Below are positions 44,832-47,294 of a stretch of DNA of 50,140 nt, piece by piece (the first letter of the stretch is position 1; every line of letters starts with the position of its first letter). Location of the stretch: IMG/VR virus record IMGVR_UViG_2522572023_000006; one strand, given 5' to 3'. Source of the stretch: a virus (lineage: Duplodnaviria; Heunggongvirae; Uroviricota; Caudoviricetes). Below the pieces are notes generated by a model. The model had not been told where the DNA came from. It did no database searches and was given only the letters and a program-made list of their open reading frames with translations. The position numbers and the translations under genes were made by a program.

Positions 44832-47294
44832 ATGAGCACTGATAAAGAAGAATTTGCGCTATATTGCGAAGCAAAAAATGACAAAGTCAGAAAACGTCTG
44901 GGAATTAAAGGTGGTTTTTACTGGACTACAGCAAAAAAATTATCTGTTGCCATCTCCCGCTGCATTACCGCAATGGATGACAACGATTATGATGAAGACG
45001 ACTTTAAAAAACCCGTTCGCGTCCATTTACCCGTTGTGAATGACCTTCCACCTGAAGGCGTGTTTGATACCGAATTCTGCAACCGATACGAAAAAGGCGG
45101 GGAAGATGGCATTACAATGGTATTTATCGCGCCCTCTCCCTCCGTGCAGGAGAAACCAGCCAGTACTGACAATACCAACGTCAACGGCGAAGACATGACG
45201 GAGATTGAGGAGAATATGCTCCTGCCGGTTTCTGGTCAGGAGCTGCCCATTCGCTGGCTTGCGCAACACGGCAGCGAAAAACCAGTAACGCACGTTGCAC
45301 GGGAAGAACTTCAGGCATTACATATAGCACGGGCGGAAGAACTGCCGGCTGTTACTGCCCTGGCCATTTCCCACAACACAAAGCTGCTCGACCCGCTGGA
45401 GATTCGCGACCTTCATAAACTGGCACGCGACACTGACAAAGTTTTCCCTAATCCCGGTAATTCAGACCTGGGACTGATAACTGCTTTTTTCGAGGCATAC
45501 CTGGACGCTGACTACACTGATCGGGGTCTGCTGACAAAAGAGTGGATGAAAGGAAATCGTGTTTCGCGTATCACCCGTACGGCTTCCGGTGCAAATGCCG
45601 GTGGCGGGAACAAAACCGATCGCAATCCGAATTTAGTACACACCTTCGATACGCTGGATGTGGAGATTGCAGCAGCCACACTTCCGATGGATTTTAATAT
45701 TTATGAAATTCCGGGCAGCGTTTATCGTCGCGCAAAAGAAATCGTCCTGAAAAGAGAAAGTCCGTTCAAAGAATGGTCCGCAGCACTTCGCGCAACCCCG
45801 GGTATTCTGGACTATTCCCGCGCCGCTATTTTTGCACTTATCCGGAGCGCTCACCCTGAGTTTTATCACTACCCGGGACGCCTTCAGGGGTATATCAACG
45901 CCTACTTAACGGAGACTGATCACGAGAACCCCAGCAAGGAAACTCTCACTGCTGCACGACATACACCGGAAAAAGATATCCTGGAAGAAGTTAACCGCGA
46001 ACTGGCTGCTAAGCAGGAAACAGAAGAAGAAGAAAATGATGAAGAAAAACCGCAACCATCTTGCGCAATGGCAGATGAACAGGCAACGGCTGAAACAGTG
46101 GAACCGGATGCAACTGAACATCATCAGGACACGCAGCCGCTGGATGCTCAGTCACAGGTAAATTCTGTTGATGCGAAATATCAGAAACTGCGGGCAGAAC
46201 TCCATGAAGCCCGGAAAAACATTCCGCCCCAAAATCCTGTCGATGCAGACAAATTACTGGCTGCCTCTCGCGGAGAATTTGTTGAAGGGATTAGCGACCC
46301 GAATGATCCGAAATGGATTAAGGGGATCCAGACCCGCGATTCTGTGTACCAGAATCAGCCAGAAACGGAACAGAACGACCAGAAAGCGGAACAGAACAGC
46401 CCAAATACGCAACAAAACGAGCCAGAAACGAAACAACCTGAACCAGTAGTGCAACAGGAACCGGAAAAGATCTGCACCGCCTGCGGTCAGAGGAGTGGCG
46501 GCAACTGCCCTGATTGTGGCGCGGTGATGGGCGACGCAACATACCAGGAAACATTCGATGACAAGAACCTGGTTGAAGTTCAGGAAGACGATTCGGAGAA
46601 AATGGAAGGCGCTGAACATCCACACAAGGAGAATGCTGGCAGCGCTCAGGACCACGCCAGCGATAGTGAAACTGGCGAGACGGCAGATCCCTTAATTACG
46701 GTGAACGGTCATCGCATTATCACATCCACCAGCAGGACGTGTGACCATCTAATGATCGACCTTGAAACCATGGGAAAAAATCCTGATGCCCCGATTATCT
46801 CAATAGGTGCAATATTTTTCGATCCGCAAACCGGAGATATGGGACCGGAATTTAGTAAGACTATCGATCTGGAAACTGCTGGCGGAGTCATTGATCGGGA
46901 CACCATTAAATGGTGGCTTAAGCAATCACGCGAAGCGCAATCTGCCATTATGACCGATGAAATCCCGTTAGATGATGCACTGTTACAATTGCGGGAATTT
47001 ATCGACGAAAACTCCGGTGAATTTTTTGTTCAGGTCTGGGGAAATGGAGCCAACTTCGACAACACGATTTTGCGCCGTTCATACGAACGGCAGGGGATCC
47101 CCTGCCCGTGGCGTTACTACAACGATCGCGATGTGCGCACAATCGTTGAGCTGGGGAAAGCCATAGACTTCGATGCCAGAACGGCTATTCCATTCGAAGG
47201 TGAGCGCCATAATGCACTTGATGACGCCCGTTACCAGGCAAAATACGTTTCAGTTATCTGGCAAAAACTGATCCCGAGTCAGGCTGATTCTTAA
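44832..47294 (+). CDS. Large early protein with C-terminal DEDDh (DnaQ-like) 3'-5' exonuclease domain
   Basis: 820 aa; C-terminal motifs [29 protein letters not shown]; central Gln/Glu/Pro-rich low-complexity segment from short DNA repeats; CxxC-x8-CxxC zinc ribbon. Confidence 0.65.

Follow-up and report, generated by a model that had tools for sequence, protein, structure and literature searches.

A RecE-type module joined to a DEDDh exonuclease domain

We analysed a stretch of viral DNA of 50,140 nucleotides (IMG/VR record IMGVR_UViG_2522572023_000006, Caudoviricetes; hereafter the window), in which the plus-strand gene at 44,832-47,294 encodes a predicted exonuclease of 820 residues. The window matches Escherichia coli O145:H28 RM12761 (NZ_CP007133.1; 100% identity over the 7-kb stretch searched). 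In the RefSeq annotation of the matching 50 kb it is a complete lambdoid prophage bounded by a truncated ydfJ and rspB, which is the Qin position. Late, lysis, nin and replication genes occupy the minus strand, and the early-left arm, with the exonuclease gene, lies on the plus strand. The open reading frame (ORF) runs from ATG to stop exactly where an initial annotation, made from the sequence alone, had placed it, and corresponds to RefSeq WP_000102128.1 ('exonuclease'). Its product is an intact two-module protein: a RecE-type N-terminal module is followed by a disordered linker and a DEDDh exonuclease domain.

Two Pfam families, PF06630 (Exonuc_VIII) and PF16473, are thus found in one 820-residue protein. 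The folded N-terminal module covers residues 1-400 (44,832-46,031), as supported by the AlphaFold2 model, by conservation and by the ratio of non-synonymous to synonymous substitution rates (dN/dS); within it, PF06630 matches residues 57-189 (45,000-45,398, E-value 5.1e-34). In the full-length model, built on 81 diverse family members, block means of the predicted local distance difference test (pLDDT) exceed 90 over most of residues 1-400 but dip at about 101-120. As modelled, the module begins with a small alpha/beta head (1-100) and continues as a helical body (120-400); the latter holds the most conserved motifs of the family, starting with RTxSGxNAGGGxx in the consensus of the 81 homologues.

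Residues ~400-650 are predicted to be disordered, with pLDDT below 50 over most of the linker. This low-complexity linker of about 240 residues (~401-638; 46,032-46,745) was recognized by its pLDDT, net charge and Q/N/P/E/T content, and its acidic stretch extends from residue ~376 to ~625. It contains a 21-bp tandem repeat in 3.8 copies (46,357-46,436, Tandem Repeats Finder), read as a 7-residue repeat, at which Rac RecE has 14 fewer residues (an alignment gap), so that the copy number differs between the two proteins. It also contains a four-cysteine zinc ribbon, C548-x2-C551...C559-x2-C562 (46,473-46,517), visible in the sequence and as a weak Pfam DZR match. The ribbon is conserved in RecE, where the aligned stretch reads CNACGQTGGDNCPDC.

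The C-terminal domain, residues 639-810 (46,746-47,261), is a predicted 3'-5' exonuclease of the DEDDh (DnaQ-like, DexA/Rv2179c) type. It matches PF16473 over model positions 2-177 of 177 with an E-value of 2e-67 and 226.7 bits, against a gathering cut-off of 27, and all of its catalytic residues are present: D643 and E645 (ExoI, DxE), D743 (ExoII), and H793 and D798 (ExoIII, Hx4D). Both the score and the active site place the domain in this family. The five residues fall in invariant columns with D7, E9, D119, H186 and D191 of T4 DexA. The acidic, repeat-rich linker, the zinc ribbon and the DnaQ-like domain had all been named in the initial annotation, and all three are borne out.

By sequence, the nearest solved structure is PDB 8KEL, a 227-residue chain named 'Exodeoxyribonuclease' (E-value 1.7e-6), which we take to be T4 DexA; among PDB sequences the domain has no other match at an E-value of 1 or below. 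The PF16473 family and T4 DexA share with it the invariant D-E-D-H-D set and a domain size of about 180-190 residues. They part at the level of identity (26%) and organization, DexA being a stand-alone protein of 227 residues with extra loops. From its fold, the domain is predicted to have a polarity opposite to that of the 5'-3' nuclease of RecE.

An exchange of the RecE nuclease domain

RecE is a workhorse of recombineering, and its N-terminal 560-600 residues have no known function. That N-terminus is described as a domain of unknown function, and the nuclease domain (residues 564-866) genetically replaces the whole protein and suffices for RecET activity (PMC11611040).

In BLASTP, residues 58-623 of the 820-residue protein align with residues 50-592 of K-12 Rac RecE at 62% identity, with long near-identical blocks; the first 57 residues differ from RecE. 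The homologous stretch (45,003-46,700) is also recovered by tblastn and by the NCBIfam model PRK09709. The alignment ends at ADPLIT/ADPVIV, right before the RecE nuclease domain, a PD-(D/E)XK domain matched by PF12684/DUF3799 at residues 615-850 of Rac RecE (E-value 4e-28). Pfam finds no DUF3799 match in the 820-residue protein. PRK09709, the exonuclease VIII equivalog, gives 996.5 bits, under its cut-off of 1269, and aligns over model positions 1-603 of 877 only. Since homology stops where the PD-(D/E)XK nuclease of RecE begins, the difference amounts to a swap of the nuclease domain. Judged from these alignments, the protein is a RecE in which a DEDDh nuclease has taken the place of the 5'-3' nuclease, and the long N-terminal region is no unexplained appendage of an exonuclease.

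The two proteins have the Exonuc_VIII domain, the acidic linker and the zinc ribbon in common, and both genes lie in an early-left operon upstream of xis and int. Rac RecE ends in a PD-(D/E)XK 5'-3' nuclease and its gene is followed by recT, whereas the 820-residue protein ends in a DEDDh domain and its gene is without recT. Of the attributes of exonuclease VIII it therefore has the PF06630 region alone; the PD-(D/E)XK domain and an adjacent RecT are missing, and the equivalog score is too low.

The combination of PF06630 and PF16473 is already visible in public annotation, and the gene is very common: the identical protein sequence occurs on at least 999 contigs, and copies are named 'exonuclease' or '3'-5' exoribonuclease' by the NCBI annotation pipeline PGAP.

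recT follows the PD-(D/E)XK nuclease

Near-identical E. coli sequences swamped a first homologue search, which was superseded by a search of cluster representatives and a genome scan. Residues 1-625 were compared with 1.84 billion representatives of 50%-identity clusters, giving 269 clusters at an E-value of 0.001 or below. Among the listed representatives of at least 400 residues, 14 carry a DEDDh domain, about 24 a PD-(D/E)XK domain and about 40 no recognisable nuclease. Those without a nuclease correspond to the 'RecE-2' proteins described by Zheng et al. (2025), RecE relatives that lack this domain; these share the N module with the 820-residue protein, which differs from them in having a nuclease.

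The genome scan, with one genome per species, yielded 67 loci, all from Enterobacterales except for one mis-binned metagenome contig. That contig (JAGZPX010000007.1, filed under a 'Veillonella parvula' metagenome-assembled genome) has a 94%-identical N core and the same xis and int, and is almost certainly mis-binned E. coli prophage DNA.

We counted recT in the 57 species-level loci whose downstream sequence extends for at least 1.5 kb. A RecT-family gene lies directly downstream of the PD-(D/E)XK form in every case (27 of 27; confirmed by Pfam RecT in all five sampled). Next to the DEDDh form, RecT, Bet, Erf and Sak4 are absent from all 23 loci within 6-7 kb on either side. Five further loci encode an N module with neither a recognisable nuclease nor an adjacent recT. 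The distance to the integrase gene follows the same division: its median is 203 nt, roughly the length of xis, for DEDDh loci and 1907 nt for the RecE+RecT class. With Rac RecT as its single seed, phmmer failed to find the recT genes next to PD-(D/E)XK forms, all of which were recovered by Pfam together with a rebuilt hidden Markov model; negatives from single seeds are for this reason weak evidence.

The presence of recT thus tracks the PD-(D/E)XK domain, not the N module. Muyrers and co-workers are said to have found in 2000 that RecT binds the C-terminal nuclease region of RecE, annealase-exonuclease pairs being reportedly partner-specific; that recT travels with the PD-(D/E)XK domain fits this binding.

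The nuclease classes have N-core subtypes in common. The DEDDh protein of locus L066 and the PD-(D/E)XK protein of L022 are 87% identical in the N core, those of L038 and L040 81%, and in the species set the nearest relatives of the K-12 RecE N core are DEDDh proteins (66%), the best PD-(D/E)XK protein reaching 41%. Such sharing across classes implies that recombination in the linker has swapped the nuclease repeatedly. The dN/dS ratio is 0.09 in the N core (residues 58-375, compared with phage vB_EcoS-640R1) and 0.17 in the DEDDh domain (compared with phage Evi), against 0.33-0.49 in the linker. Both folded modules are under purifying selection, and faster evolution of the linker is as expected of a recombination-prone spacer that hosts nuclease swaps.

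These observations bear on whether the gene is the remnant of a RecET system that lost recT, as the initial annotation implied in suggesting that the recombination module might be incomplete. In Rac, recT comes directly after recE, and here the corresponding slot between the exonuclease gene and xis is empty. Published prophage surveys implicitly agree with such decay, scoring all but one of these systems as not intact: seven Sakai prophages were described as having exonuclease VIII-type systems, 'intact only in Sp10' (Asadulghani et al. 2009, PMC2669165). The C-terminal domain is, however, replaced rather than truncated, the 820-codon ORF is intact in its many copies, and both folded modules are constrained. 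The same layout recurs in all 23 species-level DEDDh loci. It is shared by two phages with deposited records, vB_EcoS-640R1, whose protein is 88% identical, and Evi; in both, the exonuclease gene is followed by an excisionase-sized gene and no annealase gene, and only vB_EcoS-640R1 has an annotated integrase. As the DEDDh form never has an adjacent annealase, the missing partner is normal for the type and does not mark a broken module. Selection and distribution already contradict decay, which we regard as very improbable: the fusion is a stable design in a type of phage without a Rec module, not a decayed RecET system.

In the literature consulted, we found no account of the strict coupling of recT to the PD-(D/E)XK form, of the lack of an annealase beside the DEDDh form, of repeated nuclease swapping on a conserved folded N module, or of the higher load of Chi sites in the DEDDh class described below.

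Searches for an annealase

Queries with RecT, Red-beta, Erf, lambda Exo, Gam, Abc1, Abc2 and Arf against all six frames of the window (phmmer --max and tblastn) gave chance-level matches only. The early genes, among them all those from the repressor to the integrase, were scanned with Pfam, PHROGs and NCBIfam, which returned no annealase family and no gene for SSB, Gam or Abc; seeds for Sak4 and SSB were applied to the related loci only. The earlier observation that no annealase or Gam gene lies between the exonuclease gene and the repressor gene therefore holds. A lambda Gam-like match at 33,863-34,108 (plus strand, E-value 0.003-0.015) is antisense within a DUF968 gene and was taken as a chance match.

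The sole neighbour big enough to hide an annealase is a 216-residue ORFan, 'Ybl81', in the early-left arm (42,941-43,591, plus strand). Its 151 homologues (65-99% identity) come nearly all from Escherichia, with one Salmonella-named sequence, and it belongs to no Pfam, NCBIfam or PADLOC family. Considered as a hidden annealase, it gave a weak model (pLDDT 68) that matches no annealase or solved fold.

The exonuclease had also been called the only recombination-type gene of the prophage. This needs correction: besides int and xis, the nin region on the minus strand encodes a RusA Holliday-junction resolvase (33,359-33,718; RefSeq) and an HNH/DUF968 nuclease (33,731-34,780; RefSeq, and PHROG 96, HNH endonuclease). 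By the definition of a lambdoid Rec module in Zheng et al. (2025), an annealase gene with contiguous partner genes, the prophage has none, and its exonuclease gene adjoins xis-int, a position that these authors exclude from Rec modules.

It had been suggested, too, that the N-terminal region might itself provide the partner function. That region is large, folded and conserved, and its function is unassigned; Fu and co-workers reportedly found in 2012 that full-length RecE improves linear-linear recombination. Truncated RecE, however, still needs RecT, and the N module occurs together with a separate RecT in all 27 PD-(D/E)XK loci, so it is no substitute for an annealase. The region matches no RecT, Red-beta, ERF or Rad52 model of Pfam or PHROGs, and a profile search of PDB sequences with it gave no match. 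Foldseek, run with the full-length model only, found no PDB or BFVD match at an E-value of 1e-3 or below, annealases included. The alignment behind the model mixes architectures, so that the DEDDh domain was badly modelled and Foldseek recovered not even DEDDh folds; its negative for the N module is consequently suggestive only. With this qualification, the predicted structure gives no sign of an annealase fold of the Rad52, RecT or Red-beta type. Domain annotation assigns the region to the RecE N module and detects no annealase domain there or in the neighbouring ORFs, and we consider an annealase or partner function of the N region extremely unlikely.

Another association of the N module was seen in locus L071 (Sodalis sp. 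dw_96, 4515-8173), where a nuclease-less N-module protein of 536 residues is encoded directly downstream of genes for a Sak4-like annealase and SSB. This third context suggests that the N module can also accompany non-RecT annealases.

Chi sites and Rec-less lambdoid phages

According to a recent survey, a Rec module is missing from 22% of lambdoid phages, which are Chi-enriched and make use of the host RecBCD; 'sporadic' DnaQ-type nuclease genes near int are not counted there as Rec-module genes (Zheng, Casjens, Smith et al. 2025, PMC12315714). As cited in the same work, 134 of 275 lambdoid prophages and phages are without an annealase (Bobay et al. 2013).

The window has 10 Chi sites (GCTGGTGG), where shuffled sequences lead one to expect 1.95. 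The minus strand carries seven of them, in the orientation active in lambda (the strand corresponding to the top strand of the lambda map): six between 26,781 and 46,733, starting at 26,781, 27,366, 32,227, 36,818, 41,471 and 46,726, and a seventh at 1,540. All seven fall in the right half of the inferred virion map. The other three (31,412, 34,090 and 34,142) are on the plus strand, in the opposite orientation. Chi is absent from the ~23 kb of head and tail genes (~1,900-26,700), and nine sites lie in the other half.

In the early-left DNA of the related loci, the DEDDh class has, per 10 kb, 4.2 Chi in the active orientation and 0.97 in the opposite one; the active-orientation figure for the RecE+RecT class is 1.9, a difference with a Mann-Whitney p of 3e-6 when related prophages are counted as independent.

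The prophage resembles the Rec-less, Chi-rich class (the LLS functional type) in several respects: no annealase, SSB or anti-RecBCD gene was found in the scans described above, Chi is in excess and biased to the active orientation and to the right half of the virion map, and a DnaQ-type gene stands beside int, as in the 'sporadic' category. It differs in that its Chi density is below that of the LLS type (1 per 1.86 kb) and about that of the host chromosome, and in that it is a resident prophage, whose Chi content may partly reflect adaptation to the host. The fit to the class is good but not decisive.

Possible functions of the fusion protein

The explanation that we favour, and hold to be somewhat better than an even chance, is that the protein is a 3'-5' exonuclease on a RecE scaffold, in a phage that has no annealing recombination of its own and relies on RecA and RecBCD at Chi. 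The N-terminal module would assemble or target the DNA exonuclease, in a role independent of RecT and of the polarity of the nuclease. The phage would lack single-strand-annealing recombination of its own, and host RecA and RecBCD would act at Chi, as in other Rec-less lambdoids. Most likely, the exonuclease would trim 3' ends or tails on intermediates of phage replication or recombination; as a guess, this trimming might yield ends onto which RecBCD can load.

The family of the domain lends context to this proposal. In phage mEpX2, a stand-alone DEDDh exonuclease, 58% identical to the domain, is encoded between SSB and Abc2 in a canonical Erf-SSB-exo-Abc2 Rec module, a location that marks the domain family as a probable recombination-associated DNA nuclease in lambdoid phages. 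Like the fusion, the stand-alone DnaQ exonucleases of the mEpX2/epsilon34 type are encoded in early-left operons near int; they differ in having about 180 residues and lying within an Erf-SSB-exo-Abc2 module, whereas here the domain is fused to the RecE scaffold and has no other module gene around it. Substitution of such a domain on a RecE scaffold points to DNA-end processing, with a predicted reversal of polarity.

Several points weigh against the favoured explanation. The mEpX2 domain can work with an annealase while RecBCD is inhibited, which weakens a specific link to RecBCD. The comparison of Chi between classes draws on related, non-independent prophages and includes the exonuclease gene itself. 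The window has seven active-orientation sites where the published class typically has '8 or more'; its inactive sites number three, against a class limit of at most 6. Its overall density of Chi, moreover, is close to that of the E. coli chromosome and might in part be due to long residence in the host. On the structural side, the AlphaFold model of the DEDDh domain is poor, and the negative for the N-module fold, obtained with the full-length model alone, is not exhaustive.

The mEpX2 arrangement also speaks for a different reading, in which the exonuclease takes part in single-strand annealing with an annealase (Red-beta, RecT or Erf) supplied in trans by another prophage of the host. There the relative sits next to Erf, and tightly packed DnaQ-type genes are counted as Rec-module nucleases by Zheng et al. 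(PMC12315714). Genomes of enterohaemorrhagic E. coli (EHEC) are rich in lambdoid prophages, some of them with Red systems (PMC2669165). This is difficult to reconcile with the uniform lack of an annealase near the DEDDh fusions and with the action of a 3'-5' exonuclease, which would destroy the 3' tails needed by reactions of the Red and RecET type. The RecE C-terminal domain that RecT reportedly binds is, moreover, absent here. An annealase acting in trans is in our estimate unlikely.

We give about the same low weight to a role in defence or exclusion, as a DexA-like nuclease degrading incoming phage DNA, for example the 5-hydroxymethylcytosine (5hmC) DNA of T-even phages. Kang et al. (2025, PMC12153337) report that an E. 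coli DexA homologue, EcD ('HREX'), digests T4 and 5hmC DNA and protects cells against T4, and that among bacteria such homologues are most frequent in Escherichia, Citrobacter and Klebsiella, the genera in which the RecE-DEDDh family is found. The closest solved relative of the domain by sequence is, again, presumably T4 DexA. Of the two DexA residues reported to recognise 5hmC, W152 and D169, the first is replaced by an aromatic residue, Tyr, and the second by Phe, with acidic residues (Asp) flanking its position. Neither is thus strictly conserved, whereas the equivalent of D90, a tetramer contact of DexA lost in EcD, is retained; DexA S87 aligns with a Pro.

The 820-residue protein is not EcD itself, whose cloning primers show a start at MIDTET and an end at TIPETYD. 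PADLOC gave no match for the exonuclease or its neighbours, its database of 2023 predating HREX. Being a distal gene of a repressor-controlled operon with no promoter-like site of its own, the exonuclease gene is probably silent in the lysogen, by what is a weak test, and a defence role would leave the fusion to a RecE scaffold unexplained.

Activity on RNA is a further alternative: the domain would be an exoribonuclease acting on phage or host RNA, for example in processing the transcript of the dicB/DicF operon. The Pfam family is named after an RNase (Rv2179c), many copies of the gene are called '3'-5' exoribonuclease' by PGAP, and the DicF RNA is encoded just upstream. Yet the sole solved relative by sequence, which we take to be T4 DexA, is a DNA exonuclease, the domain replaces a DNA nuclease on a DNA-recombination scaffold, and its stand-alone relatives are located in DNA recombination modules. 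We find this alternative hardly plausible.

A broader version of the RecE-scaffold exonuclease may be considered, although we think it improbable in its full form. The N module would be an autonomous platform for DNA ends or host factors with interchangeable nucleases, the PD-(D/E)XK form recruiting RecT and the DEDDh form serving RecBCD and Chi, for instance by blunting 3' tails. If so, phages would have a third strategy for recombination, intermediate between 'bring your own Rec module' and 'bring nothing', and there would be a first functional handle on the 600-residue N-terminus of RecE.

The N region is in any case confidently folded and conserved, and is found joined to a 5'-3' nuclease, joined to a predicted 3'-5' nuclease, or lacking a nuclease altogether; its 3'-5' form is associated with prophages that are enriched in Chi and have no Rec module. 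The natural series of domain swaps is a clean experiment on the function of the RecE N module. The results also correct the labelling of these genes, which are very common in EHEC prophages, as 'exodeoxyribonuclease VIII' or as defective RecET systems. Should the nuclease aid RecBCD/Chi-dependent growth or defence, it would bear on replication, recombination and the exchange of virulence cargo in Rec-less prophages of pathogenic E. coli.

Genetic neighbourhood

The early-left arm is headed by the gene of a DicA-like repressor (42,104-42,523, plus strand; PHROG 5736, with a weak NCBIfam DicA match). Directly after it and before the first early-left gene there is a hairpin with a perfect 16-bp stem followed by a T-rich tail (42,566-42,602, plus strand). 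A full dicB-type operon adjoins the exonuclease gene on its 5' side, all on the plus strand: a DUF1391 gene after the repressor gene, the small RNA DicF (44,140-44,191; Rfam RF00039, 71.5 bits), and, directly upstream of the exonuclease gene, dicB with a ydfD-like (DUF1482) gene (44,366-44,739; Pfam DicB and DUF1482, RefSeq).

Downstream, 72 nt from the 3' end of the exonuclease gene across the gene-free gap that recT fills in the Rac gene order, comes the excisionase gene xis (47,367-47,618, plus strand; Pfam DUF1233, PHROG excisionase). It is followed by the tyrosine integrase gene int (47,638-48,933, plus strand; Pfam and RefSeq), at the end of the prophage beside rspB. The exonuclease gene, xis and int look like the distal genes of the dicB-type operon. 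A promoter and terminator scan around the exonuclease gene gave fewer sites than shuffles and is uninformative on expression.

In the same place, the K-12 Qin prophage has an unrelated pseudogene, ydfE, and an IS2. BLASTP finds no homology between ydfE and the 820-codon gene, which excludes that the former is a truncated copy of the latter.

Upstream of the lysis genes, on the minus strand, an orphan type II-like DNA methyltransferase (31,056-32,114; PADLOC MTase_II, E-value 3e-163) adjoins a prophage-borne tRNA-Met (~30,937-31,007; RefSeq). Between the tail-fibre genes and the end of the prophage, the RefSeq annotation places a cargo gene for NleC, a type III secretion effector metalloprotease (~2,029-3,015, minus strand), and beside it are a DinI-like gene and fragments of capsid and tail genes.

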